From positions 320,001 through 384,000 of the forward strand of contig CBDFLE010000005.1 of assembly GCA_965248925.1 (NCBI GenBank): 64,000 nucleotides of DNA. The letters run 5' to 3'. The position numbers and the translations under genes were made by a program. The DNA comes from Candidatus Multivoradales bacterium (lineage in GTDB: Bacteria; Acidobacteriota; Thermoanaerobaculia; Multivoradales; J023). Below are positions 43,950 through 64,000 of the stretch, one piece after another. The notes below the pieces were generated by a model. That model made no database searches and was not told where the DNA came from. It saw only the letters and a program-made list of their open reading frames with translations. Numbering within the stretch: the first letter of the stretch is position 1; every line of letters starts with the position of its first letter.

Positions 43950-44363
43950 ATGGCGAGTCCAAGCCACGAGCTGCGAGATATGAGTGCTGACCGACCAGAT
44001 CCCGAGGTAACTGAGAAGGCGAAGCGGCGGCGGTACAGCGCGTCGTACAAGCTGAGCATCGTCCAGGCCGCCGACGCGTGTAGCAAGCCCGGCGAGATTG
44101 GCGCCCTGCTTCGCCGGGAGGGTCTGTATTCATCTCTACTATCGAATTGGCGCCAACAACGCGATGCCAGTGCTCTGGCCGGTTTGTCGAAGAAGCGCGG
44201 TCGTAAGCGTCGGTCGGTCTCTGCTGAGGCCCGCCGCGTCGCGGAGCTTGAGCGTGAGATTGCCCGGCTCAAGCATCAGCTGTACAAAGCCGAGACGATC
44301 ATCGATGTCCAAAAAAAACTTTCCCGACTGCTAGGGATCGAGCCGAGCGAGAGCCAGTCATGA
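43950..44363 (+). CDS. IS3-family transposase OrfA
   Basis: RRRYSASYK..., GALLRREGLYSS.L.NWR; A8 run in DVQKKL (possible frameshift site). Confidence 0.9.
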   Translation: MASPSHELRDMSADRPDPEVTEKAKRRRYSASYKLSIVQAADACSKPGEIGALLRREGLYSSLLSNWRQQRDASALAGLSKKRGRKRRSVSAEARRVAELEREIARLKHQLYKAETIIDVQKKLSRLLGIEPSESQS

Positions 44364-45481: not shown

Positions 45482-45705
45482 TTCCCAGAAGAAAGTGTCT
45501 CATTCTCATTGACACATTCCGCCAGGCGCCCTAGCACCAGTCGCCACAACACGGGCCGCGCAGGTGCACAGGAATCCTTGGATCAGGCGCATCACCTTGC
45601 ACCCGCGGTACTGGTGTCAAGAGTTCGGAAGCGTAGAAGCAGGACTCTACAGAGAATTGGTCGGCGCTGAGAACTCTTGAATTACGCCTTGGTTACGCTT
45701 TCAAT

Positions 45706-46509: not shown

Positions 46510-46549
46510 CCTCAGAACTGCGACGCACAAGCTGGCTGCCGAGCGGTGG

Positions 46550-49517: not shown

Positions 49518-51074
49518 TCAAGCCAGCGGCACTGCTTGGCCGGCCTGAACGTAGGCATGCTCGAAGGCGAACAGGCCGAGCAGAGCAGCAAAGGCACTCG
49601 GTATCGGCCCGATCCACGGCGCAGCAACCGCCACAACGGTCAACGCCATGCCGATGCCAAAGAAGTTCTTGAAGCGGCCGGCGATCATCTCATGAGTGGC
49701 CAGCTGAGCGTGGGCGGTGCCGTGGACCAGGGTCACTTCTCCGAGCACCATTAGTAGGTGCACGGCGCTGGCTCCGGCAACTGTCAGCAGCAGGGGCCGC
49801 ACGGCTGCTAGCTCCAGCCATGCCGCCACCGGCAACAGGGCGGCGGCACCGGCGAGCAGTGCTTGCACCAGCAGGTGAGGTGGTAAGAGAGGGTTCTGCC
49901 ACAGATCCCGCGCTTTGGCCTGGGCGAAGAGATAGGCGGTGTAAATCGAGGTCAGCACCGCCAGCGGCAGGCCGACCCAAGCAAGCTGGTTCAGCAGGCC
50001 GCCAAAATCTTGCCAGCTGGCAAGGGCATGCAGGCTCAGCACCGCGCCATAGCCGGTGATGATGTAAGCGCCCTTGACCAACCAACTCTGCCAGTTGCCG
50101 CGGGTGAAGATCATGTAGAAGCGCTCGGGGTGTTCGAGGTCCCACAGCAGCAGACCGCCGGTGAGCCCCAAGAACACGAGGGCGACGACCGGTGCAACGC
50201 AGGTCCAGAGGGTGCTTTCCGGGCTGACAAAGCCGCCAAGCAGCAGCAGCAGCGGCACCAAGTAGGCGCCGGCGGCGACCCCCTTGGTCAGGGTGTAAAG
50301 GCTGACCCGCCAATCCCAGGGTGCTTGGTGCGGCACGTCGTAGGACAACACCGCGGCGACGGAGGAGTTGTTGGACAGCGGTTGCCCAGCGCCGCCTGGA
50401 TGTCCGGAGACGACGCTTGAGCCACCCTGCTTTTGCTCGCTCCACATAAACATGCCGCCACTCGGACGGCGCGCCGCCAGCGGATCGAGAGTCGCCTGGT
50501 GCGCACCGCGGTAGAACAGCTTGGGCCGGGTTTCCTTCTCCGGTCGCCGCACCGCCACCGGTTCGCGGTGAACCTGCCGCGCCACCTTGGAGGTTGGATC
50601 GTTGAGATCCCCCACCAGAATGGCCTCGGTGGGACAGACCACCACGCAAGCCGGTTCCAAGCCGACATCGAGGCGGTGAGCGCAGAAATTGCATTTCTCG
50701 GCCGAGTGATCCTCGGGATTGATGAAGATAGCGTCGTAGGGACAGGCCGCCATGCATGCTTTGCAGCCGAAGCAGGCCGACTTGTCGAAATCAACAATGC
50801 CATCGTCTCGCCGGTACATCGCTCGGGTCGGGCAGGCAATCGTACAAGGCGAGTCTTCGCATTGGTTGCAGCGAGTGACCTGAAAGGCCCGCCGCGCCTG
50901 TGGAAAGGTGCCTACATCGACGTATTTGACATAGGTCCGGTGGACGCCGAGGGGAACGTCATTCTCTGACTTGCAGGCTGTCGAGCAGGCGTGACACCCG
51001 ATGCATTGGGTGTGATCGATCAGCTTCGCCCACTTGACCGGCAAGGCAGCTGGTTGAGCCGCGTCAAGGGGCAT
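49518..51074 (-). CDS. Fused four-cluster Fe-S subunit and NrfD/PsrC membrane anchor
   Basis: CIGCHACSTAC, CNQCEDSPCTIACP, CFGCKACMAACP, KCNFC..CVVVCP; then PWDWRVSLY, DLEHPERF, SWLVKG, YTAYLF..AKARDLW and several TM helices. Confidence 0.92.
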   Translation of the reverse strand: MPLDAAQPAALPVKWAKLIDHTQCIGCHACSTACKSENDVPLGVHRTYVKYVDVGTFPQARRAFQVTRCNQCEDSPCTIACPTRAMYRRDDGIVDFDKSACFGCKACMAACPYDAIFINPEDHSAEKCNFCAHRLDVGLEPACVVVCPTEAILVGDLNDPTSKVARQVHREPVAVRRPEKETRPKLFYRGAHQATLDPLAARRPSGGMFMWSEQKQGGSSVVSGHPGGAGQPLSNNSSVAAVLSYDVPHQAPWDWRVSLYTLTKGVAAGAYLVPLLLLLGGFVSPESTLWTCVAPVVALVFLGLTGGLLLWDLEHPERFYMIFTRGNWQSWLVKGAYIITGYGAVLSLHALASWQDFGGLLNQLAWVGLPLAVLTSIYTAYLFAQAKARDLWQNPLLPPHLLVQALLAGAAALLPVAAWLELAAVRPLLLTVAGASAVHLLMVLGEVTLVHGTAHAQLATHEMIAGRFKNFFGIGMALTVVAVAAPWIGPIPSAFAALLGLFAFEHAYVQAGQAVPLA

Positions 51075-51097
51075 CGGCGACTCATTCTGCGGCACGC

Positions 51098-52369
51098 TCA
51101 GAATCCCCAGGAGTAGCCGATCTCGAGATCCCATTGGCTCATCTCGAGCTCGATCGTTTGGGCACCGGGGAGATCGAGCGGATTGGGACCGACAACGCTG
51201 GTCGAAGGCGCGTGCATCACCGCCAGGCTGAGGGCGCGGCCGCTCTTGAGCTGCTTGGTGAAGCCCACCGTGAAGTGATCTTCCACCACGCCGGGGGCGA
51301 GGATGTTGAAGAGCACTTCGCTAGACCGGATGGGCTGATCGGTGGTCGAGAATCCAAAGCGCCAGGTGCAGGTGTCGCGCTGCCACTGCAAGCCCGCTTT
51401 GTAGATCGTTATGTCCTCCCAGCCGAAGCCGGCACCGCCATCATCCCCAAGTCGAGTGGTGACCAGGTTGGGCAAGAGTGGATTGCTCACCGCCCTACTA
51501 TCGGTGTAGAAGATCTCTTGAATATCGAAGACGAGAGTCAGCTGTTCGGTGAGACCGGCCGCTATGCCCGCGGTCCAAGAGGACGGGATATCGAAGCCGC
51601 CCTGCTCAGCGAACAGTCCGGCGTAGTCGTCGAACTCGCCCATCTTGGTCTCGGTCTGGTACGAGGCTCCGACCGAAAAACGCTCGGTGAGCTGACCCAG
51701 ATAGCCAATCCTGAAACCGAATCCGGTGCTGGTGTCGTGGCCGTTGTTGCTCAGGTTGGCGGTGTCGCTGGAGAACATCCCGAAGGTCTGGATTCCCTGA
51801 ATCTCGAAGCTCTGGTAGGCGAGCAGCGCGGTGAGGCCAAGGGCGTGCTTGCCCCCCCCGAAACGGAAGGCATAGGTCGGCGCGACGAATAGCTGGGCGA
51901 GGTCGACACCTGTTGGCGAGCTGCCGAAGAAGGTGCGGGTCGGATAGTCCGTGTTCATCCCGCCGTTACCGTAAAGACTGAAACCGAAGGTGGAGTTGGT
52001 GCCAACCTGCCAGTTGCCGCCGAAATATGGGATGGCGAAAAACTCCGAGTCGCTGTCCACCTTTCCCTGGGCTAGCCCGAAGGTACCTAGAAAGCCGGTC
52101 GGTGCACCACGCACGGTGTAGCTGCGGCTGGGGCTGAAAGTCGCCAGGCCGGCGTCCCAACGCTTGCCGAGGAAGGCCATCCCCGCCGGATTGGTCGCCG
52201 CCGCCAGCGCGTCTTGGGGTAGCGCCACGCCAGCGCCAGCCAGGCCCTTATTGGCGGTGCCGTAGCCATGAGCGAAGTAGCCGTTGGTCGCCAGGGCATG
52301 GGGAACCCAGCCGAGCGCGCACAGTGTAAGGGTGACGGTTCCTCGGACGATGAGGGCTTTTTTACCCAT
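51098..52369 (-). CDS. FadL/OmpP1/TodX family outer-membrane channel
   Basis: Signal peptide, ATNGYFAHGYG..KGLAGAGVA, NPAGM hatch motif, C-terminal Phe. Confidence 0.9.
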   Translation of the reverse strand: MGKKALIVRGTVTLTLCALGWVPHALATNGYFAHGYGTANKGLAGAGVALPQDALAAATNPAGMAFLGKRWDAGLATFSPSRSYTVRGAPTGFLGTFGLAQGKVDSDSEFFAIPYFGGNWQVGTNSTFGFSLYGNGGMNTDYPTRTFFGSSPTGVDLAQLFVAPTYAFRFGGGKHALGLTALLAYQSFEIQGIQTFGMFSSDTANLSNNGHDTSTGFGFRIGYLGQLTERFSVGASYQTETKMGEFDDYAGLFAEQGGFDIPSSWTAGIAAGLTEQLTLVFDIQEIFYTDSRAVSNPLLPNLVTTRLGDDGGAGFGWEDITIYKAGLQWQRDTCTWRFGFSTTDQPIRSSEVLFNILAPGVVEDHFTVGFTKQLKSGRALSLAVMHAPSTSVVGPNPLDLPGAQTIELEMSQWDLEIGYSWGF

Positions 52370-52546: not shown

Positions 52547-52924
52547 CTAGCTCTTACTTTTCTCCACTGGCTGCGGGCTGCCGACCAGCATGCTCTGGCG
52601 GACATCAGAAATCAATTTGACATCGGCAGCGGCGCGGTCCAAGAGGGAGTCGCAGACTGCTTGGCAGATACCAAAGACGGTGGTGTCGCCGATCGAATAA
52701 AGGGCGTTGGCACCATCGCGCCGGCGCTCGACCAGGTTGACGGAGCGTAGGATATTGAGGTGTTTTGAAACGTTTGCTTGGCTGCCACCGACCTCGGCGA
52801 GGATTTCGGACACCGATCTCTCCCCCATGTGGAGGGTGTGTAGAATCTTCAAGCGAAAGGGGTTTCCCATCGCCTTGAGTCGCACCGCGATGCGTTCGAG
52901 AATTTCGTCTTGAAGCTCTTGCAC
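52547..52924 (-). CDS. ArsR/SmtB family transcriptional regulator with C-terminal CxxxC
   Basis: LKAMGNPFRLKIL..L..GERSVSEI...SQANVSKHL..L...LV.RRRDG; GICQAVC. Confidence 0.93.
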   Translation of the reverse strand: MQELQDEILERIAVRLKAMGNPFRLKILHTLHMGERSVSEILAEVGGSQANVSKHLNILRSVNLVERRRDGANALYSIGDTTVFGICQAVCDSLLDRAAADVKLISDVRQSMLVGSPQPVEKSKS

Positions 52925-52959
52925 TCGTCAGTCCTCATGCTTTCGGTGTCCGGACACGG

Positions 52960-53053
52960 GCTATCCTAGCACCTCTTCTCAGAGCTGCCGCCAATACCCT
53001 GAGACGGTTGCCCGGAGGTGAAAATTGACCTAGGTTTAGGATAGCGCTATAGT
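52960..53053. promoter_or_regulatory. Divergent promoter region between arsR and tusA
   Basis: Plus strand TTGACC (53025-53030), 17 bp, TATAGT (53048-53053); palindrome ATAGCGCTAT (53041-53050); minus strand TG-C-TAGGAT near 52963-52971. Confidence 0.65.
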
Positions 53054-53135
53054 CGCATACAGTGATGAAGGCAGATGTGGGCCGGCCCGAGGCGGTTCGA
53101 ATGTGCGGTCTTTCGCAGGCTAGCAAGGAGTTCCT

Positions 53136-53372
53136 ATGTCTCAAGTAACAGCTGACCAAGAGATCGACTGTCGCGGCATGAACTGCCCGCTGCCGGTGCT
53201 CAAGACTAAGAAAGCGCTGGTGCCGATGAACGGCGGCCAAGTGCTGAAGGTGACATCGACGGATCCGGGCTCGGTTGCCGACATGGCCGCTTTCAGTCGC
53301 CGTACCGGCCACGAGCTGCTCGACCAGAGTGCCGGCGATGGCGAGTACGTTTTCTTTTTCCGGCGCAAATAA
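53136..53372 (+). CDS. tusA: Sulfur carrier protein TusA
   Basis: IDCRGMNCPLPVLKTKKAL (CPxP motif), STDPGS; AAGGAG RBS. Confidence 0.95.
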   Translation: MSQVTADQEIDCRGMNCPLPVLKTKKALVPMNGGQVLKVTSTDPGSVADMAAFSRRTGHELLDQSAGDGEYVFFFRRK

Positions 53373-53383
53373 AGGAGGGGAAA

Positions 53384-53899
53384 GTGGCTGAAGAACGTCC
53401 CAAACGCCTTGCCCTCATCGCCTCTCAAGGAACTCTCGACTGGGCTTATCCTCCCTTCATTCTGGCCTCGACCGCCGCGGCTCTCGATATGGAAGTGGCG
53501 GTTTTCTTCACTTTCTACGGCCTGCCCCTGCTGTGTAAGGACTTGAAGGCGAAGGTCTCGCCGCACAGCAATCCGGCGATGCCGATGAAGATGCCCTTCG
53601 GTTCCCAGGGTTTCCAGGGTATCGAGTGGAACATCCCCAACGCCATCTCCGGCAACGTGCCGGGCTTCGATACCTTCGCCACCTCGATGATGAAGAAGAG
53701 CTTCGCCAACAAAGGGGTCGCCACTATCGAGGAGCTGCGCGAGGCCTGCGTCGATCTCGACGTCAAGTTGATCGCCTGCCAAATGACCATGGATGTCTTC
53801 GGCTTCTCCCGCGATGAATTCATCGATGGTATCGAACTCGGCGGTGCCGCTACTTTCCTCGAGTTCGCTGCCGACTCCGACATCAGTCTGTTCGTCTAA
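53384..53899 (+). CDS. dsrE2: DsrE2-type sulfurtransferase
   Basis: GTLDWAYPPFILASTAAALD..V.VFFTFYGL, ACQMTMD. Confidence 0.88.
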   Translation: MAEERPKRLALIASQGTLDWAYPPFILASTAAALDMEVAVFFTFYGLPLLCKDLKAKVSPHSNPAMPMKMPFGSQGFQGIEWNIPNAISGNVPGFDTFATSMMKKSFANKGVATIEELREACVDLDVKLIACQMTMDVFGFSRDEFIDGIELGGAATFLEFAADSDISLFV

Positions 53900-53914
53900 C
53901 CGGCCAAGTCGACA

Positions 53915-54688
53915 GTGAGCGGAAGAGAGAACCGAGCGCGCCTGCTAGACCTTGGCGAGGTCAGCGCGCTGCGTTCTCAGAGTCTCTTTCACGCCGTTGC
54001 CGCGGTGATGCAGCCACAGGACGACCCCGCGCTTATTCTGCTGCGCCCCGGCGCGGCGCTGGTCACCATCGGCCGCGACTATGCCGAAGATACCCTTGGC
54101 GGTGCATTGATCACAGCTGAAGGATTGCCGGTGTTTCGCTCCCTGGCGCCCGGCGAGTTGGCCTTTCACGACTCGGGTCAACTCTCCTTCTACCTTCTGG
54201 TCGGGGCAGGGCGGATTGACGAATTCGGACTTGGCTCGCCGCCCGCCAACTCAGTAGAGGCCGTGGCTCGGGCGCCGATCAGCGCTTGCCGCGCGCTGGG
54301 ATTCGAAGCGCAGGCAAGCCCGCCGAACAAGATCGTAGTGGCGGGTCGAGCGATTGGTACCGTCGAGCTAGTGAGGGTCGACGAGGTTTCGCTGCTCCGC
54401 GGCCGGCTGTGGCTGGAGGTGGATGGCGACAGGCTCGGACGGATCGAGGAGCAATTCACCACCGACTCAACCACCTCTTTCAGTCAGCATTTGGCGCCCG
54501 GAAAAGGATTTCCGGAAGTCGCCGATGCTCTGGTGGCGGCGATCGAGAAAGAACACCAGCTCGATTTGATTCCCTCGATGCCGACGCCAGCCGAACTCGA
54601 CGCGCTGCTCGACTGGGACACTCGGCTGGCCGGTAGTGGATTGCGAACAGGTTTTTCGAGCAGTGAAACGGACCGGATTCCCGCTTAG
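53915..54688 (+). CDS. Lipoate-protein ligase-like protein with degenerate catalytic motifs
   Basis: LLDLG.V...RSQ..FHAVA N-terminus and xxHD..QL; RRxxGGG replaced by RSLAPGE and NDI..GxKI by NKI..GRAI. Confidence 0.7.
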   Translation: MSGRENRARLLDLGEVSALRSQSLFHAVAAVMQPQDDPALILLRPGAALVTIGRDYAEDTLGGALITAEGLPVFRSLAPGELAFHDSGQLSFYLLVGAGRIDEFGLGSPPANSVEAVARAPISACRALGFEAQASPPNKIVVAGRAIGTVELVRVDEVSLLRGRLWLEVDGDRLGRIEEQFTTDSTTSFSQHLAPGKGFPEVADALVAAIEKEHQLDLIPSMPTPAELDALLDWDTRLAGSGLRTGFSSSETDRIPA

Positions 54689-54696
54689 GAGATCGC

Positions 54697-55068
54697 ATGG
54701 ACGAAGGAAGTGTAGTGATTTTTGTGACCTCGGGTCCCGACACCCCGCAGCGTTGCGCGACGCCGTTCTACATGGCCAACATTGCCACTGCGATGGACAA
54801 CGAGGCTGAGTTGATATTCCAGATCGATGGTGTGCTGCTGATGAAAAAGGGGGTCGCCGAGGAACTTTACGCCAAAGAAGGTGGCAAGAAAGTCATCGAC
54901 TTTATTCGCGAGGCCAAGGAATCCGGGGCGACCATGAGCGTTTGCTCGGCGGCGCTCCAGCTGCACGACATGACCGAGGACGATCTGATCGAAGAATGCG
55001 ACGGGGTGGTCGGCGCCGCCTACATGACGGATCAAGGACTCGACGCCGATATGGTGCTGTGTTACTGA
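54697..55068 (+). CDS. DsrE family sulfur-transfer protein
   Basis: VTSGPDTPQRCATPF..A..A.AMD, DGV.L, MSVCSAAL, VGAA. Confidence 0.85.
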   Translation: MDEGSVVIFVTSGPDTPQRCATPFYMANIATAMDNEAELIFQIDGVLLMKKGVAEELYAKEGGKKVIDFIREAKESGATMSVCSAALQLHDMTEDDLIEECDGVVGAAYMTDQGLDADMVLCY

Positions 55069-55090
55069 TCCGCTCACTCTTTGGAGTTCG

Positions 55091-55555
55091 ATGATGGCTG
55101 AGGTGAAGAACTGTCTCCTGCCCGATGACTTGCGCTATCACGTCAAGTTCAATGTTTGGCTGCGCGACAACAGCGATGGAACCTACGACCTGGGAATGAC
55201 CGACATCGCCCAGACGATGGCCGGCGCGATCATCCATTGCCGGCCGAAAAAAGTTGGCAAGACGGTCAAAGCGGGACGCAGCGTGGCCACCGTCGAGAGC
55301 GGCAAGTGGGTAGGGCCGGTGAAGACCCCTTTCGCCGGCAAGATCGTCGCTCGCAACGAACTCACCGAGAGCGAGCCGACGGTGCTCAACAAGAGCCCTT
55401 ATCAACAAGGCTGGATCGTGCGCATTGAGCCCAGCGATGGCGCGGCGGTCTTCGAGGCGCTGCTAGAGGCTGAGCTAGCGAGTGGAGAGTTCGCCACCTA
55501 CATGGCCGAGAACGAGCTGGGCGAGTGCATCCACTGCGAAGGGTTCGATGGGTGA
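55091..55555 (+). CDS. lbpA: Lipoate-binding protein (GcvH-like) of the sHdr system
   Basis: SVATVESGKWVGP lipoyl-Lys motif, CLLPDDL.Y, GMTDIAQ, PY..GWI; position within the sHdr cluster. Confidence 0.88.
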   Translation: MMAEVKNCLLPDDLRYHVKFNVWLRDNSDGTYDLGMTDIAQTMAGAIIHCRPKKVGKTVKAGRSVATVESGKWVGPVKTPFAGKIVARNELTESEPTVLNKSPYQQGWIVRIEPSDGAAVFEALLEAELASGEFATYMAENELGECIHCEGFDG

Positions 55556-55829
55556 GCTGCTCATGAGGGTCTTCACCCATCCTGCTTGTTCAGGCTGTTC
55601 GGCGGCGGTGCGCCGGGCCTGGGAGCTGAACCAGGCGCAACCTGAGATCGAGCTGCGGACGGTTAGCTCGGTGGAGAAGGCGGGGCTTGCAGAAGCGCAG
55701 CGAGAGGGCATCAAGACCATCCCGACGATCATCTTCTCGTCGCCAGCGGGCGAGCAGCGGCGCTTCGTGGGCACGCCCCAAGCCGGTGCTCTCGCATCCT
55801 TCGCCAGTACCCTTTCATCCCCGGTCTAA
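55548..55829 (+). CDS. Thioredoxin/glutaredoxin-like protein
   Basis: FTHPACSGC (CxxC), IKTIPT cis-Pro loop, RFVGTP. Confidence 0.85.
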   Translation: MGELLMRVFTHPACSGCSAAVRRAWELNQAQPEIELRTVSSVEKAGLAEAQREGIKTIPTIIFSSPAGEQRRFVGTPQAGALASFASTLSSPV

Positions 55830-55842
55830 AGGAACAGCAGCG

Positions 55843-56562
55843 ATGGATCCGATATACGCCGACGCCAAGTTTCAGGATGTCCCCTACGAAGAGAAGAAGG
55901 CCCTCTTCGATGAAGTCAAGGCCGACATGCGCTGGGAAACGACCCTCTACGGCTGCTACGAATGCGGTATTTGCGTCGCCGCCTGCCCGTCGGCTCGTTT
56001 CTACGATTTCAGCCCGCGAGTCTACGCCCAAGTCATGGCGCGAGAAGATGTTCACACCTTCTATGAGCTGCTCAATGAGTCGGTCTGGGATTGCTCGCAG
56101 TGCTTCTCCTGCACCCGCTGCCCGCGACAGAACAACCCCGGTGGAATCATCACCATCATGCGCGAGGTGGCGGTCAACCATGGCTTGGAGACCGCGAAAG
56201 ACGCCCTCAAGGCATACAGCCGCATTATCTACAAGATCATGTCGACCGGCACCCAGGTGGCGCCCGACATGCTGCAACCCGACTTCTTCCCCGATTGGGG
56301 GCCCGACGTGCAGCAGGTCTCCGACAATCTGGATGTGTGGCGGCGGGCGATTCCCCCTGAGACCTTGCACACCACCGAGCTGGCCTGGGATGTGGCCGAG
56401 AAGACTAGAGTCGAGCTATTCATGATCTGGAAGCTCACTGGCAACCTGGAAATGATCGAGCAGATCGATGAAGGCATCTTCATGATTCTCGAAGAGGTTA
56501 TGGAAGAGCTACTCGACGAACATGGCTTCGACATCGACGACTTCGACTCTGTCATTGACTGA
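55843..56562 (+). CDS. shdrC1: sHdr heterodisulfide reductase-like subunit C1
   Basis: CYECGICVAACP, WDCSQCFSCTRCPRQNNPGG, FPDWG. Confidence 0.9.
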   Translation: MDPIYADAKFQDVPYEEKKALFDEVKADMRWETTLYGCYECGICVAACPSARFYDFSPRVYAQVMAREDVHTFYELLNESVWDCSQCFSCTRCPRQNNPGGIITIMREVAVNHGLETAKDALKAYSRIIYKIMSTGTQVAPDMLQPDFFPDWGPDVQQVSDNLDVWRRAIPPETLHTTELAWDVAEKTRVELFMIWKLTGNLEMIEQIDEGIFMILEEVMEELLDEHGFDIDDFDSVID

Positions 56563-56588
56563 CTATGTGATCGACTGAGGTAACCACC

Positions 56589-57791
56589 ATGAGCATCTTG
56601 CCGATTGTCGGTGCTGGCGGCCCGACCAAGGCCAAAGACCGAGTCTTCGACCGCAAAGGTCATATGCCCGAGGAGTACTACAAAGATCAGCTCTTCGAGC
56701 TCGAAGCCAAGGGGGAGTTGATCATTCATCGGATCAGCGAAGCCCAGGCCCCGGTGGAACTCGACAACAAGTTCGGGCGCAAGAAGAAGATCGCCATCGA
56801 CAACACCTGGCACCATAAAAGCTGTGGCCAGTGCGGTCATATTCCAGGCTATTCGACCTCGATCTTCTGGCTCATCCGCGAGCTTGGCTTGACCTATCAC
56901 GATCCCAAGGAGCAGACCTCCTGCACGGCTTGGAACTACTACGCTTCCTCGACCTCCAACCCCGCCGCCCAAGCGGCGGTGGCGCTGCGCAATTTTGCCC
57001 AAGCCTACGAACACGGCTTCTATCCGATCATCCACTGCGGCACCAGCTATGGCCACTACAAAGAGGTGCGTGAAGAGCTGATCCATCATCCGGAGCTGCG
57101 GGACCAGACCCGGCGGGTGATGGAGAAGCTCGGTAAGCCGATGGTCTTTCCCGAGGAGATCGTCCATTACTCAGAGTGGGTGCATGCGATGCGCCACCGG
57201 ATCCACGAGCGCCAGACTCTCGATCTGAGCAATGTCACGGTGACCGTGCATCCGGCCTGCCACTACCACAAGCTGGTGGCCGAGGACGCGATCTACGACC
57301 GTGAACTCTACGACGGTCAGCGCACCGCGGTGGTCAGCGCCCTGGTCAATGCCCTGGGCGCCAACCTGGCCGACTATTCGACTTTCCACGATTGCTGCGG
57401 TTTCGGCTTCCGCCACATCCTGGTGAGCCGCGATTTCTCCCGCTCTTTCGCCACCCTGCGCAAGATCGAGAAGATGAAAGAAGAAGCCAATCCCGATGTC
57501 ACTCTGACCCACGACACCGGCTGTGTGACCACCCTGGATAAGAGCCAGTTTGCCGCTCAGGCCCACAACCGCAATGTCGGCATCCCGGTGATGTCCGATG
57601 CTCAATTCGCCGCGTTGGCGATGGGCGCGCACCCCTACAAGGTCTGCCAGCTGCACTGGCACGGAGTCGACATGAAGCCGTTGCTCGAGAAAATGGGCAT
57701 CGACCACGCCGCCGCTTGGGCTGAGTTCGAAGAGGTGGCGGCAAAGATCAAAGCTGGCGACATGGATTTCATGTCGTGGGAGGACTGCTGA
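56589..57791 (+). CDS. shdrB1: sHdr subunit B1 (CCG domains)
   Basis: HHKSCGQCGHIPGY, QTSCTAWNY, IHCGTSYG, HPACH, DCCGFGFRH, HDTGC. Confidence 0.92.
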   Translation: MSILPIVGAGGPTKAKDRVFDRKGHMPEEYYKDQLFELEAKGELIIHRISEAQAPVELDNKFGRKKKIAIDNTWHHKSCGQCGHIPGYSTSIFWLIRELGLTYHDPKEQTSCTAWNYYASSTSNPAAQAAVALRNFAQAYEHGFYPIIHCGTSYGHYKEVREELIHHPELRDQTRRVMEKLGKPMVFPEEIVHYSEWVHAMRHRIHERQTLDLSNVTVTVHPACHYHKLVAEDAIYDRELYDGQRTAVVSALVNALGANLADYSTFHDCCGFGFRHILVSRDFSRSFATLRKIEKMKEEANPDVTLTHDTGCVTTLDKSQFAAQAHNRNVGIPVMSDAQFAALAMGAHPYKVCQLHWHGVDMKPLLEKMGIDHAAAWAEFEEVAAKIKAGDMDFMSWEDC

Positions 57792-58858
57792 TGGAGCACC
57801 ATCCGATTCTCATCATTGGCGCCGGACCGGCGGGCCTGGAAGCGGCGCGAGGGGCGGCGGAACTGGGCTACCCGGTGTTGCTGGTGGAGAAAGAGACCCT
57901 CCTCGGCGGTTCACCGATCCTCTCCTCCTATGCCGCCTTGACGCCCAATATGGAAGACGCCGAGACGGCAATGAAACGCATGGCCGATGGCGCCAGCGGC
58001 GAGTCGTTGGTCGACGTCCGCATCGAGACCACGGTCATCGCCGCCAGTGGCGACGCCCCTGAGATCAGCGTCACCCTGGCGGGACCCGGCGGTGAGGAGC
58101 AAGTCACCGTTGGCGCAGTGATCGTCTGCACCGGCTTCCAGCATTTCGATCCCGGCCGCGAAACCCAGATGTACGGCTACTACGAGTACGACGACGTCAT
58201 CACCCTGGTCGATGTCGAGAAGATGCTCAAAGCCGGCAAGTTTGTGCGCCCCTCGACCGGCGAGACGCCGAAACGAGTGTGCTTCATCCAATGCGTTGGC
58301 AGCCGCGACCGGCAGATCGGCAACTTCTGGTGCTCCAAGGTCTGCTGCGGCATTGCCTGTAAGGAAGCCATCGAGATCCGCGAGCATGTGCCCGACTGCC
58401 AGGTCTTCGTCTTCTACATTGACATGCGGATGTACAGTTTCTGGGAAGACCAGCTCTATTGGAAAGCGCAAGAGAAGCACAAAGTGCAGTTCATACGCGG
58501 CATCGTTACCGAGATCACCCGCCGCGGCGACACGGTGGTGATCAAGGGCGAGGATACAACCATGGGCCGGCCGGTCGAGGTCGCCATGGACGTGGTGGTG
58601 CTGTCGGTCGGCATGGAACCCAGCGAGGGCACCACCGAGATGGCCAAGATGTTCGAGCTACCGCTCGAATCGCACCGTTTCATCGAGACCACCGGCGGGG
58701 CGCTCAACACCGTCTCGACCACGCGGCCGGGGATCTATGTCGCCGGCTGCGCCTCCGGTCCCGCTGATCTCGAAGATTCGGTGTCGGCGGCTGGTGCGGC
58801 GGTAATGAAAGCCGCTGGTTTCTTGCGCAAGCATGCGCTCACCGCCGAAACCGTCTGA
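57791..58858 (+). CDS. shdrA: sHdr flavoprotein subunit A (short HdrA)
   Basis: GAGPAG, GFQHFDPG, FIQCVGSRD..IGN.WCSKVCC, FYIDMR, GPAD; TGATG coupling to B1. Confidence 0.93.
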   Translation: MEHHPILIIGAGPAGLEAARGAAELGYPVLLVEKETLLGGSPILSSYAALTPNMEDAETAMKRMADGASGESLVDVRIETTVIAASGDAPEISVTLAGPGGEEQVTVGAVIVCTGFQHFDPGRETQMYGYYEYDDVITLVDVEKMLKAGKFVRPSTGETPKRVCFIQCVGSRDRQIGNFWCSKVCCGIACKEAIEIREHVPDCQVFVFYIDMRMYSFWEDQLYWKAQEKHKVQFIRGIVTEITRRGDTVVIKGEDTTMGRPVEVAMDVVVLSVGMEPSEGTTEMAKMFELPLESHRFIETTGGALNTVSTTRPGIYVAGCASGPADLEDSVSAAGAAVMKAAGFLRKHALTAETV

Positions 58859-58876
58859 GCGAGGCAGAAACCAGCT

Positions 58877-59725
58877 GTGCTGCACACTCCCGTCAACATT
58901 GGTCAATCGGCCGCCGGTCCGGCCGCTAGGGTGGTCGATGCCGAGGCCGCCCTCGAGTTCATGAAAGAGGCCACCAAAGTGGCCACCGGTACTGAACTCG
59001 AAGACATCGGCCAACGGCTCGAGCTGAAGAGCGCCTTGTTCGGTGAGTTGCTAGCCGAGGAGCGCCTGGAGACCTTCGACGAGGAGGATCTGAAGTGTCT
59101 GCTACGCCATATCTTCACCCTCAAACGCAAGGCCAAGCGCCTGCTGCGGCGCAACGATTTGGTCACGATACGGCAGGGTTTCCAAGATTTGCTCTACGGC
59201 AGCGATGCGATTGCTGAGCGTTTCGATCGGTTCACCGCCGGTATCCAGGGTTTCGAGCCGGCGATGAAAGTTTCGTTGGCCAGCGAGGTGTTGCATTTCA
59301 CCGATCCCGGCAGCCACTGGCTGTGGACCTATTGGATTTGGAACCCCAAGACCAGCACCGGTGCTTTGCCCCTAGTGACTCACCAAGAGGGCGTCGACCT
59401 GTCCGGCACCAGTGCTGGGGTGATTTACGACCAGGTCGGCCAGGCCCTGGTGCAAGTCAATCAAGCGGGCCATGAGGTCGGCTACTCGCGGTCGGGCAGA
59501 GGCTTATTCGGCACCGATGTGTTCCTTGCCTGCGTCTACGCGGTTTACATGTTCACCGTTTTCAAAGTGAAGCTGTCGCAGGAATTCAACCGCATTTTGC
59601 CAGAGCTGCCGCAGCTCGTCGAACGGGTGTTGGGAGTCCACGCCATGGGAGAAGCCGATGCCGGAGAGACCAATGCCGGAGAGACCAATGCCGGAGAGAC
59701 CCATGCCGGAGAGACCAATGCCTGA
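58877..59725 (+). CDS. shdrH: Conserved hypothetical protein in the sHdrH position
   Basis: Directly follows shdrA; EVLHF..P..WLWT.WIW.P.T.TGALPL, DVFLACVYAVY. Confidence 0.8.
   Translation: MLHTPVNIGQSAAGPAARVVDAEAALEFMKEATKVATGTELEDIGQRLELKSALFGELLAEERLETFDEEDLKCLLRHIFTLKRKAKRLLRRNDLVTIRQGFQDLLYGSDAIAERFDRFTAGIQGFEPAMKVSLASEVLHFTDPGSHWLWTYWIWNPKTSTGALPLVTHQEGVDLSGTSAGVIYDQVGQALVQVNQAGHEVGYSRSGRGLFGTDVFLACVYAVYMFTVFKVKLSQEFNRILPELPQLVERVLGVHAMGEADAGETNAGETNAGETHAGETNA
59658..59722 (+). repeat. 15-bp tandem repeat ATGCCGGAGAGACC(A/C) x4 plus partial copy at the shdrH/shdrB3 junction
   Basis: Units start at 59658, 59673, 59688, 59703 and 59718 (partial); they encode (AGETN)n in shdrH and (MPERP)n in shdrB3. 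Confidence 0.95.
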
Positions 59726-61043
59726 GAATCCGACCTATAAGACCACCGCCACCCCCACACGGGACAAGGATCAGAGCTTTGTCGAAAAGTCGCAGGCGGT
59801 GGTCGAGGGGATTGACATCTCTGGCCATTGGAACCGCATGTATGAGCCGCGGGAGATCCAGGACTACGATACGACCTTCCTCGACAAGCTGACCGATCTG
59901 CCCGGCGGCGAGTCGATGGGTTGGTGTTACCAATGCGCCCAATGCGTGCCCGCCTGCCCGGTCGACAACGTCGGCGGCGATTATGCGCCGCGCAAGATCT
60001 ACCGCCGCCTGCAGATGGGTAACGACATCTTCAATCATCGCGACCTGTGGCTGTGTACCACCTGCCAAAACTGCTTGCGGGTGTGTCCCAAAGAAGTCGA
60101 CATGATGCAGATCATGCCCGCCGCGCGGGCCCAGGCGGTGCTCGAGGGCAATGCCCCCGAAGAGCTGATGGAGATGTTCCAGAACGTTGCCGAATATGGC
60201 AACCCGATGGGCCAATCGCCACGCAAGCGAGCTCGCTGGACGCGCAAGGCCGACAGCCCAGTGCGGGTACTGCCCAAGGATCCGGCGCCGGTCGAGGTGT
60301 TGTGGTTCGTTGGCGATTACTATGCCTACCACGGCCGCGGAGTCGACGCCGCCAACGCCATGAGTCGGGTGTTCAACCGCCTGGGGGTCGATTTCGGCAT
60401 TCTCGGCGCCGACGAGCGCTCCGATGGCGATTCACAGCGCCTGGCCGGCGAGCCTGGGCTGTTCGCAGAACTGGCCGAGCACAACATGGCGCAGTTCAGG
60501 AAGTACGAGTTCGACAAGATCGTCGTCTCCGGCCCCCACGCCTACAACGCGATCAAGAACGAGTACCCGAAGCTCGGCGGCGAAGACTCAGACACCACCT
60601 TTCCGGTCGAGCACTACACCCAGTTCTTGAGTGCCCAGCTGGACGCTCTGAAGCCCTTGCTGAGCAAATCGTTCGATCGCAAGGTGACTTTCCACGATCC
60701 CTGCTACTTGGGTCGCCACAATGGAGAGTACGACGCCCCGCGCAATCTGCTGCAAGCAGTGCCAGGGCTCGAGTTCACCGAGATGTACCGCTGCAAGGCG
60801 CAGGGCTACTGCTGTGGTGGTGGCGGTGGCGGTATGTGGATGGATGGCTATGCTTCGCTGCATCAGGCCGAGAGGCTGTCCGAGAATCGGGTCAAAGAGG
60901 CGGTCGAAGTCGGTGCCGAGGTGTTGGCGGTGTGCTGCCCCTACGAAGTATCGCGTTTCGAAGACGCGGTCAAATCAACTGATAACGATGGCAAGCTCGA
61001 AGTTCTCGACATCATCGAGATCCTCGACCGGTGCATGGAGTAG
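59718..61043 (+). CDS. HdrD-like fused Fe-S/CCG protein (sHdrB3; C2-B2-type fusion)
   Basis: CYQCAQCVPACP, CTTCQNCLRVCP, HDPCYLGR, CCGGGGG, CCPYE; in-frame alternative starts from 59658. Confidence 0.88.
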   Translation: MPENPTYKTTATPTRDKDQSFVEKSQAVVEGIDISGHWNRMYEPREIQDYDTTFLDKLTDLPGGESMGWCYQCAQCVPACPVDNVGGDYAPRKIYRRLQMGNDIFNHRDLWLCTTCQNCLRVCPKEVDMMQIMPAARAQAVLEGNAPEELMEMFQNVAEYGNPMGQSPRKRARWTRKADSPVRVLPKDPAPVEVLWFVGDYYAYHGRGVDAANAMSRVFNRLGVDFGILGADERSDGDSQRLAGEPGLFAELAEHNMAQFRKYEFDKIVVSGPHAYNAIKNEYPKLGGEDSDTTFPVEHYTQFLSAQLDALKPLLSKSFDRKVTFHDPCYLGRHNGEYDAPRNLLQAVPGLEFTEMYRCKAQGYCCGGGGGGMWMDGYASLHQAERLSENRVKEAVEVGAEVLAVCCPYEVSRFEDAVKSTDNDGKLEVLDIIEILDRCME

Positions 61044-61052
61044 AGAAGCAGG

Positions 61053-61796
61053 ATGGATATTACGGTGCTCTTGAAGCGAGTTCCTGACCTGGTCGAAGAT
61101 CTCGAAGTCGACGCCAGTGGCAAGGCGCTCGACCCCGATTGCGTGAGCCTGAAGCTCAATGAATTCGACGACCACGCCCTCGAAGAGGCCTTGCTGCTCA
61201 AAGAGAGTGGCGGCGGCAGCGTCACCGCCGTGGCGATCGACGGCGAGGGGGTCGACAAGCTGCTCTTCACCGCCCTGGCCAAGGGGGCTGATCGGGCACT
61301 CAAGGTCACTGGCGCCGCCGACGGTGACTCCAATCTGGCCCTGGCCCGCCTGTTCAGCGAGGTCATCGGCGGTGCCCCCGCCGACCTGATCCTCACCGGC
61401 GTCCAGGCCGCGGACGACCGTGATGGCCAGCTCGGGCCGATGGTGGCGGCCATTCTTGACCGACCCTGCGTCGAGGTAGTCACCAGCGTTGCCGCTAGCG
61501 ACGGCATGGTGACAGTGCAGAAGGAGTATTCGGGGGGCATGATGGCCGAATTCGAGGTCGATCTGCCGGCGGTCCTCGGTATCCAAGCCGCCGCCCAGAC
61601 GCCACGTTACGCGCCGGTGTCCAAGGTGCGGCAGATTCAACAATCAGCCACCCTCGAAGTGGTCACGGCAAGCAGCGCCGATGGATCCGGCATGACCGTG
61701 GTGGCGATGACCCCGCCCGAGACTGGCGCCGGTGCGCAGATGCTCGGTGGAGTGGATGAACTGGTCGAAGTGCTAGCCAGCAAAGGAGTGATCTGA
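61053..61796 (+). CDS. etfB: Electron transfer flavoprotein beta subunit
   Basis: LLKRVPD, LNEFDDHALEEAL, ALAKGADRA, LILTGVQAAD..DGQLG, PRY. Confidence 0.95.
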   Translation: MDITVLLKRVPDLVEDLEVDASGKALDPDCVSLKLNEFDDHALEEALLLKESGGGSVTAVAIDGEGVDKLLFTALAKGADRALKVTGAADGDSNLALARLFSEVIGGAPADLILTGVQAADDRDGQLGPMVAAILDRPCVEVVTSVAASDGMVTVQKEYSGGMMAEFEVDLPAVLGIQAAAQTPRYAPVSKVRQIQQSATLEVVTASSADGSGMTVVAMTPPETGAGAQMLGGVDELVEVLASKGVI

Positions 61797-62755
61797 TGGC
61801 CAACGACGTGATGGTGGTGGCAGAACACCTGGGCGGCAAGCTGGCCGACGTGACTTTTGAGCTTTTGGCCACTGGCAAGGAGCTAGCCGGCCAGTTGGGC
61901 GGTTCCTTGATGGTCGCCCTGATCGGTGGCGACGACGTGATGGTGGGCGAACTCGGTGCCGCCGACCTGGTGCTATGTCTCGGAGCTAGCGAACTCGCCG
62001 ACTTCAATCCCGAGAGTCACGCTGTGGCGCTCGAAGCGGCGGTAGTGGCCAAAGCGCCGCGGGCGGTGCTGATCGGTTATACCTCGATGGGCATGGACCT
62101 GGCCTCGACCCTGGCGGTGCGCAGCGGTCGTGCCCACGCGGCATCCTGCGTGCGCATCGACGGCGGCGCGTCGATCACCGCCACCAGTCAGCTCTACGGC
62201 GGTAAGATCGATGTCACCAGTGATTTAGGCACTGATCCCTGTGTGCTGAGCCTGGTGGCGGGTGCCGCCTCGGCCGCTGCCGGACGGGTCGCGGGTAGTC
62301 CGTCGGTGGAGGAACTCGAAGCGCCAGATACCGCCGGTCGAGTGCGCTTCAAGCGCTTGATCGAGCCCGAAGCTGGCGATGTCGACATCACCACCAAAGA
62401 CGTGCTGGTGGCGATCGGTCGTGGCATCGGCTCGAAGGATGATATCGAAGTCGCCGAAGAACTGGCCGAAGCCCTCGATGCCGCCGTCGCCGCCTCGCGA
62501 CCGCTGATCGATTCCGGCTGGCTGCCCAAGAGCCGGCAGGTGGGGAAGTCGGGGCTCAAAGTGCAGCCCAAGGTCTACCTCGCTCTCGGTATCTCGGGTG
62601 CCCCGGAGCATCTCGAAGGGATGAAAGGCTCGGCCACCATCATTGCCGTCAACACCGACAAGAACGCGCCGATCTTCGGCGTCGCTCACTACGGCTTGGC
62701 CGCAGATTTGTTCGACGTCTGTGAAGAACTGACCGCAGCGATCGAGGATCGGTAG
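61796..62755 (+). CDS. etfA: Electron transfer flavoprotein alpha subunit
   Basis: GRGIG, AASRPLID.GW, QVGKSG..V.PK.Y.A.GISGAPEHL.GM, AVNTD.NAPIF. Confidence 0.96.
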   Translation: MANDVMVVAEHLGGKLADVTFELLATGKELAGQLGGSLMVALIGGDDVMVGELGAADLVLCLGASELADFNPESHAVALEAAVVAKAPRAVLIGYTSMGMDLASTLAVRSGRAHAASCVRIDGGASITATSQLYGGKIDVTSDLGTDPCVLSLVAGAASAAAGRVAGSPSVEELEAPDTAGRVRFKRLIEPEAGDVDITTKDVLVAIGRGIGSKDDIEVAEELAEALDAAVAASRPLIDSGWLPKSRQVGKSGLKVQPKVYLALGISGAPEHLEGMKGSATIIAVNTDKNAPIFGVAHYGLAADLFDVCEELTAAIEDR

Positions 62756-62760
62756 CTCCA

Positions 62761-64000
62761 GTGCTCAACTCAGCCGAACGCCTAATCTTCACTGCCCTGG
62801 TGCTGGTCTGTGGCGCATTGGCGGCACGAGGCTTCGCCCAACTGGTCAAGGTCGTCCGCCGGGGCCGCGAGGCAGAGCGGACTGACGGCTGGGTCGGCCG
62901 ATTCACCAAGGCGTTATTGGATATCGGCTTGCAGCGGCCCCTATTCAAGATTCGGCCGGTGGCGAGCGTCTTCCACGCCTTCATCTTCTTTGGCTTTAGC
63001 TTCTATGTACTGGTTAACGCCAATGACCTGTTAGAAGCCTACATCGACGGCTGGTCGACGATCGGCGGCGGTCCGTTGGCCAGCGTCTTCAACCTGGCCT
63101 CCGATCTGCTCAGCGTGCTAGTCCTCGTCGGCATGGTGTTTTTTCTTGTGCGCCGATTCTTGGTTAAGCCCAAGGTACTCGACTTCAATCGCAACGTGCT
63201 CCTGCACCCCAAGGTCAGCGCCGGTGGGGTCAAGCGTGATTCGCTGATCGTCGGCGTGTTCATCTTGCTGCACGTCGGCTCGCGCTGGCTGGGGACCGTC
63301 CTGCATCTGGCGGAGAATGGCCACGGTGATCCCTGGCTACCCACCGCCAGCGCCGCTTCGCACCTCTTTGCCGGCCTGACGCCCAGCACTCTCGACTTCG
63401 GCGTCCATCTCTGCTGGTGGTTGGCGATGGGCTTGATCGTGCTTTTCTTGCCCTACTTTCCGCGCAGCAAGCATCTGCACCTGATGGTGGCGCCAGTCAA
63501 TCTGGCGCTGGATCGGCGGACTCCGCGGGGCTTGCTTGATCCAGTTGCCGATGCCGCCGCACCGGGCGCCAAGACCCTCACTGACCTGTCCTGGCCGCAG
63601 CTGCTCGACAGCTACTCTTGCATCATGTGCAACCGTTGCCAGGAGGTCTGCCCGGCGCACACCGCCGGCACGCCCCTGTCACCGGCGGCGCTGGAGATCA
63701 ACAAACGCTTCACGATGAATGAGTGCGGCAAGGAGCTGGCGGCCGGCGCCGATGCCCCCGACTTGCTCGGTGTCGCTACCACCATCGATGCGGTGTGGTC
63801 TTGCACCACCTGTTACGCCTGCGTGCGGGTCTGCCCGGTGGGCAACGAGCCGATGATGGACCTTATGGACCTGCGGCGCGGCCTGGTGTTCGACGGCGCT
63901 GCCCCCGGCGAACTGGCCGAAGTTCTGCGCCACCTCGATGAGAAAGGCAACAGCTTCGGCGACTCGCCGCGCAAACGTGCCCGTTGGGCCAAGAAAGGGC
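62761..64000 (+). CDS. Membrane-bound Fe-S oxidoreductase (EMO/FadF/HdrF-like ETF:menaquinone oxidoreductase), partial
   Basis: Manual translation from GTG at 62761: TM domain with FHAFIFFGF and PYFPRSKHLH, then CIMCNRCQEVCP and WSCTTCYACVRVCP; runs off the window. Confidence 0.9.
   Translation, partial: MLNSAERLIFTALVLVCGALAARGFAQLVKVVRRGREAERTDGWVGRFTKALLDIGLQRPLFKIRPVASVFHAFIFFGFSFYVLVNANDLLEAYIDGWSTIGGGPLASVFNLASDLLSVLVLVGMVFFLVRRFLVKPKVLDFNRNVLLHPKVSAGGVKRDSLIVGVFILLHVGSRWLGTVLHLAENGHGDPWLPTASAASHLFAGLTPSTLDFGVHLCWWLAMGLIVLFLPYFPRSKHLHLMVAPVNLALDRRTPRGLLDPVADAAAPGAKTLTDLSWPQLLDSYSCIMCNRCQEVCPAHTAGTPLSPAALEINKRFTMNECGKELAAGADAPDLLGVATTIDAVWSCTTCYACVRVCPVGNEPMMDLMDLRRGLVFDGAAPGELAEVLRHLDEKGNSFGDSPRKRARWAKKG

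Follow-up and report, generated by a model that had tools for sequence, protein, structure and literature searches.

Positions 53136 to 64000 of the window, by which we mean the whole 64,000-nucleotide stretch analysed here (C5:320001-384000 of a 7.98-Mb genome in 6 contigs, 96.9% complete), are occupied on the + strand by 14 consecutive genes for what appears to be a heterodisulfide reductase-like sulfur-oxidising (sHdr) system, together with its sulfur carriers, a lipoate-binding protein (LbpA) and an electron-transferring flavoprotein (ETF). They lie in the order tusA-dsrE2-(LplA-like)-dsrE3-lbpA-trx-shdrC1-B1-A-H-B3-etfB-etfA-emo, and the operon extends beyond the end of the window, emo stopping at 64776. 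Its features are as follows (FeS, iron–sulfur).

53136..53372, + strand: tusA, sulfur carrier (PF01206, 3.8e-23)
53384..53899, + strand: dsrE2, sulfur carrier (NF047629, 214.1 bits, cut-off 210)
53915..54688, + strand: gene for a divergent LplA-like protein of 257 amino acids (PF21948, 4.7e-10)
54697..55068, + strand: gene for a dsrE3-type sulfur transferase of 123 amino acids (PF02635, 1.9e-15)
55091..55555, + strand: lbpA1, for a lipoate-binding paralogue of GcvH (PF01597, 7.9e-34)
about 55548..55829, + strand: trx, for a CSGC-motif protein resembling thioredoxin (weak hits to thioredoxin families, none of them reaching its cut-off)
55843..56562, + strand: shdrC1 (coordinates probable), for an HdrC-like two-cluster ferredoxin (Fer4_8, 1e-8; HdrC models below cut-off)
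56589..57791, + strand: shdrB1, for a CCG-domain subunit of 400 amino acids (PF02754, 1.5e-11; HdrB model 128 bits, below cut-off)
57776..58858, + strand: shdrA, for a short HdrA-like FeS flavoprotein of 360 amino acids (best solved structure 6TJR)
58877..59725, + strand: shdrH, for a conserved protein of 282 amino acids (orthologue between shdrA and shdrB3 in 12 of 16 loci)
59658..61043, + strand: shdrB3, for an HdrC-like/HdrB-like fusion of 461 amino acids (Fer4 motifs at residues 90-147, CCG at 343-428)
59658..59727, + strand: tandem repeat of 15 nucleotides (nt), 4.7 copies, at the shdrH/shdrB3 junction (Tandem Repeats Finder score 126, 94% matches)
61053..61796, + strand: etfB (PF01012, 1.8e-26)
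61796..62755, + strand: etfA (PF00766, 1.6e-32, plus PF01012)
62761..64776 (window part to 64000), + strand: emo-like gene for a membrane FeS/CCG oxidoreductase of 671 amino acids (Fer4 at residues 283-361, CCG at 554-636)

An earlier reading of the DNA, made from the sequence only, had described an intact, tightly packed and partly overlapping run from tusA to the emo-like gene, and both the order and the content of that description hold. All 14 frames are open, as judged by open reading frame (ORF) inspection and by Pfam and NCBIfam searches. By the ORF coordinates, the gaps within the operon measure 5-26 nt, and there are overlaps of 8 nt between lbpA and trx (if the ATG at 55548 is used), 16 nt between shdrB1 and shdrA, 68 nt between shdrH and shdrB3, and 1 nt between etfB and etfA. 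At locus L010, in a metagenome-assembled genome (MAG) titled Thermoanaerobaculia, all fourteen genes recur in the same order; all 14 products align near full length with their L010 counterparts (91/93 to 400/400 query residues, at 49-96% identity), so no frame is broken within the window part. Contigs from three of four public sequencing runs span 52500-64000 with zero differences (all the runs are from one sample, probably the source of the genome), and among the public runs none of RNA was listed as containing 55843-62755. The short ends of the alignments to L010 correspond to the repeat at the shdrH/shdrB3 junction, which is absent from every aligned relative, is identical in the source-sample contigs and leaves both frames open. 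Through this 15-nt repeat, sHdrH gains five GETNA units at its end, and sHdrB3 begins with five extra MPERP units, every one of which contains an ATG.

What kind of Hdr-like system is this? Tanabe et al. (2024, Protein Sci 33:e5014; PMC11094781, cited here, like the other papers given by PMC number, from excerpts) distinguish a type I, shdrC1B1AHC2B2, from a type II, shdrC1B1AHB3-etfAB-emo, for which they cite Justice 2014, Cao 2018 and Kümpel 2024, and they recognise type II by the presence of shdrC1B1AHB3 and etfAB within one syntenic cluster. By this published definition the window cluster is type II: shdrC1, B1, A, H and B3 are consecutive on one strand at 55843-61043 and encode the expected domains, and etfB, etfA and emo follow directly downstream of shdrB3. 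The sequence-only reading had proposed just such an ETF-coupled type II sHdr-LbpA system, and its identification is borne out by the definition, by the best structural match of sHdrA and by a gene order common to 12-15 of 16 loci (below). That match is to sHdrA of Hyphomicrobium denitrificans (6TJR; 291 bits, 8.4e-86, residues 10-349), whereas methanogen HdrA chains give no more than 195.6 bits, in a match confined to residues 107-348, and the 360-residue protein covers only about positions 313-570 of HdrA chains and models. Likewise, methanogen HdrB matches sHdrB1 with only 54 bits. As to whether the proteins might group instead with methanogen-type HdrABC, a doubt raised in the sequence-only reading itself, sHdrA matches 6TJR from end to end and methanogen HdrA only in part. 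A long HdrA of the methanogen or Flx-Hdr kind (about 650 amino acids, with ferredoxin and thioredoxin-reductase-like domains) was considered and rejected, the 360-residue protein matching the HdrA core only.

The residues expected to hold the cofactors are conserved throughout (the counts that follow refer to orthologues from related loci, aligned to the window proteins). C173, C186, C190 and C191 of sHdrA are kept in 13/13 orthologues, eight cysteines of sHdrB1 in 12/12, and the eight cysteines of the two [4Fe-4S] motifs of sHdrC1 in 13/13. In sHdrB3 the two CxxCxxCxxxCP motifs (eight ferredoxin cysteines) and C349, C385, C386 and C427 are kept in 15/15, and its first CCG-like half has zero conserved cysteines among these 15 orthologues. 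This single conserved set of CCG cysteines fits the published description of sHdrB3 as able to bind only one non-cubane cluster (PMC11094781), a cluster that the window protein would also be predicted to bind. For sHdrH, no real Pfam or NCBIfam family was found, a match to GETHR being to the terminal repeat only.

Compared with the type I systems of Hyphomicrobium denitrificans and Aquifex aeolicus (shdrC1B1AHC2B2), the window system shares an sHdrA homologous from end to end with 6TJR, C1, B1, H and LbpA, and the logic of TusA and DsrE, but has the fused B3 in place of C2 and B2, and EtfAB and EMO added as an electron outlet; separate shdrC2 or shdrB2 genes were not found in the genome with B3 as query. 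With type II as published (PMC11094781) it has in common the core genes and their order, the TusA, DsrE2 and DsrE3-type transferases, probable lipoate assembly genes and an sHdrB3 with one set of CCG cysteines. Additional here are the genes for the 257-residue LplA-like and the CSGC thioredoxin-like proteins within the operon, a third radical SAM gene, and the repeat expansion at the shdrH/shdrB3 junction.

The sulfur carriers, too, have kept their likely working cysteines: that of the CPLP motif of TusA (C17) in 13 of 14 aligned orthologues, C122 and C132 of DsrE2 in all nine, and C83 of the DsrE3-type protein in 13/13. Both cysteines of the CSGC thioredoxin-like protein are kept in 4/4 orthologues; its gene occurs in only four of the compared clusters (the window, L010, L012 and L018). 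The 257-residue LplA-like protein, for which the NCBIfam search gave no match, has orthologues at L010 (49%) and L018 (31%), and its gene is the third ligase-like gene in the block, lying inside the sulfur-carrier part.

LbpA1 falls below both GcvH cut-offs (111.1 against 117, and about 85.5-85.7 against 115.85 bits), and a second LbpA is further below (56.7 bits against 115.85); a canonical gcvH is present elsewhere in the genome, on contig C6 (167.7 bits). Both LbpA copies have the lipoyl lysine, and in LbpA1 this residue (K72, in ESGKW), C8 and C146 are kept in 11/11 orthologues. The second copy lies beyond the window, where the genes after emo are, in order, those for an LplA-type ligase of 341 amino acids (sLpl(AB)), the second GcvH-like LbpA, LipS1, a radical SAM protein of 415 amino acids, a second LplA-type ligase of 394 amino acids, LipS2 and a 275-residue ORF product. 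Candidates for lipS1 and lipS2, two of the genes that the sequence-only reading had advised looking for past base 64000, are both there (with scores below cut-off), as are sLpl(AB) and the second lbpA; no LipT-like flavoprotein was seen among the genes downstream of emo. The 415-residue radical SAM protein (L001:5294-6541, equivalent to window 67294-68541, between lipS1 and the ligase gene) shows weak SPASM-type matches and has orthologues beside lip genes at L015 (57%) and G216 (63%).

Turning to the presumed electron outlet, the best solved structure for EtfB is the Methylophilus ETF 1O94 (117.6 bits), and for EtfA it is chain D of the same structure (184.9 bits). This ETF we take to be non-bifurcating and to receive its electrons from a dehydrogenase. 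A second EtfAB, unlinked, is encoded elsewhere in the genome, so the operon pair seems to be dedicated to the sHdr system. The EMO-like protein has five hydrophobic segments within residues 1-234, followed by FeS and CCG domains, and its gene is beside etfAB; an orthologue lies downstream of etfA at 11 of the 16 loci, as well as in each of the two additional acidobacterial genomes examined. In the combination of membrane, FeS and CCG domains and in adjoining etfAB, it resembles the ETF:(methyl)menaquinone oxidoreductase (EMO) of Syntrophus aciditrophicus (PMC8805022). That electrons would be wired to menaquinone through EtfAB and EMO is a published proposal, which we adopt.

Relatives of sHdrB3 were sought by scanning one genome per species, with taxa taken from the genome titles. 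The 16 loci so found include those of the Thermoanaerobaculia MAG (L010, 89%), two archaeal MAGs titled Methanobacteriota (68-71%) and a Calditrichota MAG (70%), the others being from Acidimicrobiia, other Actinomycetota, Planctomycetota, Brocadiaceae, Gemmatimonadota, Anaerolineales, Chloroflexia and Neomarinimicrobiota MAGs. There is an etfB near shdrB3 in 15 of the 16 loci, and in the 16th the contig ends inside shdrB3. Directly upstream of shdrB3, shdrC1B1AH is present in 12 of the 16; the exceptions comprise an Anaerolineales locus (L021) without shdrC1B1AH within 10 kb, L014, with a gap of 3.7 kb before shdrB3, and two short contigs (L022 and L025).

The host appears to be related to genomes titled Thermoanaerobaculia (Acidobacteriota), a placement supported by those titles and by two proteins: over its C-terminal half, RpoB shares 82% identity with its counterpart in the L010 genome, 85% with that in the L024 genome and 57% with that in the Calditrichota genome, and SecA, encoded in the window, gives 70%, 72% and about 50%, respectively. 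The attribution of the DNA to a probable acidobacterium in the sequence-only reading is in line with this. Against this background the sHdr core proteins, at 91-96% identity to those of L010, are strikingly similar (SecA 70%, RpoB 82%). The type II cluster is rare in Acidobacteriota: an sHdrB3 orthologue was found in two of 40 relatives of the same family or order, and in one of 400 other sampled genomes of the phylum (E <1e-100; 2/401 with the genome's own). In Table S1 of PMC11094781, taken from a PDF in which the columns may be off, one acidobacterial row, of class UBA6911, is positive for DsrE2, TusA, DsrE3A and type II; the only acidobacterial host there is thus of another class than that of the Thermoanaerobaculia-titled MAG to which the present host is related.

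In a tree of concatenated sHdrC1, B1 and A (15 rows, 992 columns, type II clusters only, midpoint root) the five acidobacterial rows group together (92/93), joined next by Calditrichota (98/98) and then by the two archaeal rows (100/100), with Actinomycetota, Planctomycetota and Gemmatimonadota on the other side. The core sHdr proteins of the archaeal MAGs (L011 and L012) are 69-81% identical to the acidobacterial ones; with the Calditrichota MAG included, protein identity is about 70-80%. This grouping of archaeal and acidobacterial sHdr cores points to transfer across domains.

Upstream of tusA, and divergent from it, is a second arm of the locus, with these features.

46550..49480, - strand: gene for the catalytic subunit, 976 amino acids, of a molybdopterin oxidoreductase of the molybdenum-bis(pyranopterin guanine dinucleotide) (Mo-bisPGD) kind (PF00384, PF01568, PF04879)
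49518..51134, - strand: gene for a fusion, 538 amino acids, of a four-cluster FeS protein (PF13247, 6.5e-23, residues 84-176) and an NrfD-type anchor (PF03916, 3.8e-16, residues 269-503)
51098..52369, - strand: gene for an outer-membrane channel of the FadL/TodX family, 423 amino acids (PF03349, 1.5e-16)
52547..52924, - strand: gene for a regulator of the ArsR/SmtB family, divergent from tusA (NF033788, 77 bits, cut-off 55)
53025..53068, + strand: promoter-like TTGACC-17-TATAGT (53025-53053; 10/12 consensus matches) with a 24-nt block (CTATA-N6-TACAG), a candidate operator

For the molybdoenzyme the best NCBIfam model is PhsA (207.7 bits, far under the cut-off of 694) and the best solved structure is the polysulfide reductase (Psr)/thiosulfate reductase of Thermus (PsrA, 2VPW, 137 bits); the FeS-NrfD fusion matches the TtrB, NrfC and DsrO models below their cut-offs. 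The N-terminus of the catalytic subunit is without an RRxFLK twin-arginine motif, and that of the fusion has no canonical one, so the enzyme should face the cytoplasm. On sequence grounds the pair is a candidate Soe-like sulfite:quinone oxidoreductase. Like SoeABC of Allochromatium vinosum and Aquifex aeolicus it would be a cytoplasm-facing enzyme with a Mo-bisPGD subunit lacking a signal for twin-arginine translocation, an FeS subunit and an NrfD-type anchor, and it sits beside a pathway that would produce sulfite; it differs in having FeS protein and anchor in one protein of 538 amino acids, where SoeABC has three separate subunits. SoeA is of similar size to the 976-residue subunit. The likeness is one of architecture: none of the curated models or sources consulted names the molybdoenzyme SoeA, and the clusters of its homologue P0009 are generically named. 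Among the 19 genomes with flanking sequence available for comparing shdr neighbourhoods, six have the molybdoenzyme beside a type II shdr cluster, in three arrangements: upstream and divergent in the window and L010, upstream in L020 and also (on the same strand, with another gene order) in G008, and downstream of emo in L011 and L012.

The FadL/TodX protein has orthologues at the same position in L010 (75%) and L024 (61%). Orthologues of the ArsR-type regulator, which matches the BigR and TsoR models below their cut-offs, adjoin tusA in L010, L024 and G008, and there are weaker ones in five further loci and in G216. A scan for promoters returned two sites against 1.9 expected, a match that is weak by itself; the promoter-like sequence lies, between the regulator gene and tusA, in a stretch that, the 24-nt block included, is invariant in an alignment of the window, L010 and L024, and that may be the operator of the divergent regulator. 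The repeat finder found no inverted repeat in 52900-53150 at seed 6, and the symmetry of CTATA-N6-TACAG is one seen by eye only.

How might the system work? The gene set alone does not fix the direction, because EMO works both ways in Syntrophus (PMC8805022), and for type II sHdr the direction is left experimentally open in PMC11094781, although the cultured type II hosts listed there are known sulfur oxidisers. The genome itself encodes a haem-copper oxidase (COX1, 454 bits), and dsrA, aprA and soxY were not found in it with the models used, soxB giving only a sub-cut-off match (48.5 bits); the look for sox and dsr genes that the sequence-only reading had recommended thus came back without dsrA or soxY. 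These results lead us to read the direction as oxidative. When the resemblance of the ETF to that of Methylophilus, the dedicated EtfAB and the quinone-linked molybdoenzyme are considered along with COX1 and the failure to find dsrA, aprA, soxY or YeeE, the favoured reading is that sulfane sulfur is oxidised to sulfite and then to sulfate, the electrons passing to menaquinone and oxygen. A second COX1-type gene (G000:C6:2425235-2426272) is matched as two separate pieces, one of them containing a TAG, and is probably a broken copy.

Drawing on the literature and on genomic context for substrate, product, electron path, direction and regulation, we consider it probable that this is an intact type II sHdr-LbpA system that oxidises sulfane sulfur and delivers electrons to the quinone pool. 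Sulfane sulfur would travel as protein persulfide from TusA to DsrE2 and the DsrE3-type transferase, and would be handed to lipoylated LbpA and a complex of sHdrC1, B1, A, H and B3, which would oxidise it to sulfite in the cytoplasm. Electrons would pass from sHdrB3 to the dedicated EtfAB, presumably of the non-bifurcating type, and thence through the EMO-like FeS/CCG protein to menaquinone and the haem-copper oxidase. The cofactor would be supplied by a line encoded within the operon itself (sLpl(AB), the second LbpA, LipS1 and LipS2), and the divergent ArsR-type repressor probably controls the operon at the conserved promoter block. Finally, the neighbouring signal-less molybdoenzyme, with its fused FeS-NrfD anchor, probably takes sulfite to sulfate.

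Several points weigh against this interpretation, besides the reversibility of EMO just mentioned. In the membrane part of the EMO-like protein only H72 and H240 are invariant among the 13 shdr-linked orthologues, while the characterised EMO of Syntrophus has two haems b. LipS1 is just under its curated cut-off (NF053742, 228.3 against 230 bits) and LipS2 is under its own (NF053743, 187.4 against 270). Only a CxxxC pair is present in the ArsR protein, whose score against the BigR model is far under the cut-off. Relatives of the molybdoenzyme at 73-86% identity, of which at least 120 have only generic names, are far commoner in Acidobacteriota than sHdr, so that its adjacency to shdr genes is suggestive only. 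As for where the sulfane sulfur would come from, the genome yielded, with the models used, no SoxB above cut-off and no SoxY, YeeE/YedE, flavocytochrome c sulfide dehydrogenase (FCSD)-type central domain or methanethiol oxidase; for sulfide:quinone oxidoreductase (SQR) and persulfide dioxygenase no specific model was used.

It is conceivable, if unlikely, that the machinery serves a heterotroph in detoxifying or balancing reactive sulfane sulfur, yielding supplementary electrons at most, and does not support lithotrophic growth. Such a role would suit the large size of the genome (7.98 Mb), the richness of the window in hydrolase, kinase and sulfatase genes, the failure to find Sox, Dsr and Apr pathways in the genome, and a regulator of ArsR type; moreover, Hyphomicrobium denitrificans, the sHdr model, is described in excerpts of the literature as an obligate chemoorganoheterotroph for which thiosulfate is a supplemental donor. 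A quinone outlet through EtfAB and EMO, with a quinone-linked molybdoenzyme next door, looks on the other hand to be built for energy conservation, and the resemblance of the core proteins to those of L010, well above that of SecA or RpoB, is a further argument against detoxification. We think it quite improbable that the system is reversed or bidirectional, with menaquinol reducing EtfAB through EMO so that sulfur compounds are reduced or disproportionated. Neither dsrA nor aprA was found in the 96.9% complete genome, a haem-copper oxidase is present, and the ETF is closest to a non-bifurcating one fed by a dehydrogenase; the cultured type II hosts also oxidise sulfur (PMC11094781). These considerations have to be set against the reversibility of EMO in vivo in Syntrophus (PMC8805022), the experimentally open direction of type II (PMC11094781), and the proposal that marine Thermoanaerobaculia reduce or disproportionate sulfur by means of TusA and DsrE2 (PMC8528874).

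It was in fatty-acid and benzoate syntrophy that EMO was originally characterised (PMC8805022), and the top named NCBIfam matches of the Hdr-like proteins are the HdrA, HdrB and HdrC models (all far below their cut-offs), so it might be asked whether EtfAB and EMO are fatty-acid oxidation genes adjacent by chance, or whether the Hdr-like genes belong with those of methanogens or of Flx-Hdr systems. This seems very improbable: etfB accompanies shdrB3 in 15 of the 16 loci, across many phyla, a separate EtfAB is available elsewhere in the genome, the block contains no acyl-CoA dehydrogenase gene, and the 360-residue sHdrA is matched end to end by 6TJR, corresponding to only the core of the methanogen HdrA of some 650 amino acids. 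Hardly more credible is the view of the operon as a relic in decay, within a genome that insertion sequences (ISs) have overrun. One IS indeed has at least 28 copies, IS66 has several and forms the last 98 nt of the ORF at 70900-71727, the repeat at the shdrH/shdrB3 junction has expanded, and one COX1 copy has a stop; within the operon, however, the frames are all open and near full length by comparison with L010, all the cofactor ligands are kept, and even the junction repeat leaves both of its frames open.

The preferred interpretation of an oxidising type II system can be taken further, as a set of propositions that we hold jointly, and only tentatively. The block of about 25 kb from 46550 to about 71630 might be a self-contained, lineage-hopping module that takes sulfane sulfur to sulfate and feeds the quinone pool; the fused-anchor molybdoenzyme might be the partner that type II sHdr has been missing, a sulfite:quinone oxidoreductase; the FadL-type channel might import a hydrophobic substrate, or octanoate for the cofactor; and an ArsR-type repressor at the 24-nt block might control both arms of a module that has been transferred across domains.

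How far does all this extend what was known? The sequence-only reading had presented the lineage as one not usually credited with sulfur redox chemistry. This was overstated: for Acidobacteriota, Thermoanaerobaculia included, a dissimilatory sulfur metabolism is already on record, though one of the Dsr type (PMC8528874, PMC6018796), and marine Thermoanaerobaculia have been credited with Dsr, TusA and DsrE2 (PMC8528874), while in excerpts of two papers TusA, DsrE2 and SoeABC are reported to be absent from the peatland Acidobacteriota studied (PMC6018796, PMC10564751). Our literature search on sHdr together with Acidobacteriota or Thermoanaerobaculia returned no paper describing an sHdr cluster in this class. 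The novelty of the system as such was overstated, type II having already been defined and surveyed across 130 assemblies that belong to one archaeal and twelve bacterial phyla (PMC11094781), one acidobacterium (UBA6911) among them. The cluster is therefore a further case of a described system, in a group in which it is rare. New but minor are the fused-anchor molybdoenzyme as neighbour, the conserved promoter block, the IS flanks, the 15-nt repeat expansion, and the additional genes for LplA-like, thioredoxin-like and radical SAM proteins. With this relative of Thermoanaerobaculia the hosts of type II sHdr gain a member whose genome is nearly complete (6 contigs, 96.9%); the full block, with cofactor genes, regulator and candidate sulfite oxidoreductase, makes a convenient template for work on the direction and electron outlet of type II, and the recurrent adjacency of the fused-anchor molybdoenzyme makes that enzyme a testable candidate for the sulfite-oxidising step.

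Finally, we draw attention to the mobile elements that bound the block, the upstream limit of which is the first of the following.

43881..45521, + strand: IS of 1.64 kb with an rve-type integrase ORF at 44360-45481 (PF00665, 1.6e-23)

At least 28 near-full copies of this element, at 96-100% identity, are present in the genome. The other boundary is formed by an IS66 of 2.45 kb at 71630-74079 (C5:391630-394079), one of three full IS66 copies in the genome; the final ORF of the block (70900-71727) takes its last 98 nt from this element and may be truncated. A composite transposon is not supported, no direct or inverted repeat of more than 13 nt linking 43000-46600 with 71600-78000. The sequence-only reading had placed the operon next to a region full of pseudogenes. 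The genome is certainly rich in ISs, and the window contains pieces of genes (one of GH113 at 38629-39219 and one from the N-terminal part of IS110 at 19307-19771), but the operon's immediate upstream neighbours appear undamaged. The stretch 19307-26000, which is of lower G+C (0.53) and contains the IS110 transposase N-terminal fragment, a DDE transposase gene and a gene for a CEMIP/G8 beta-helix protein, is probably foreign or decaying DNA.

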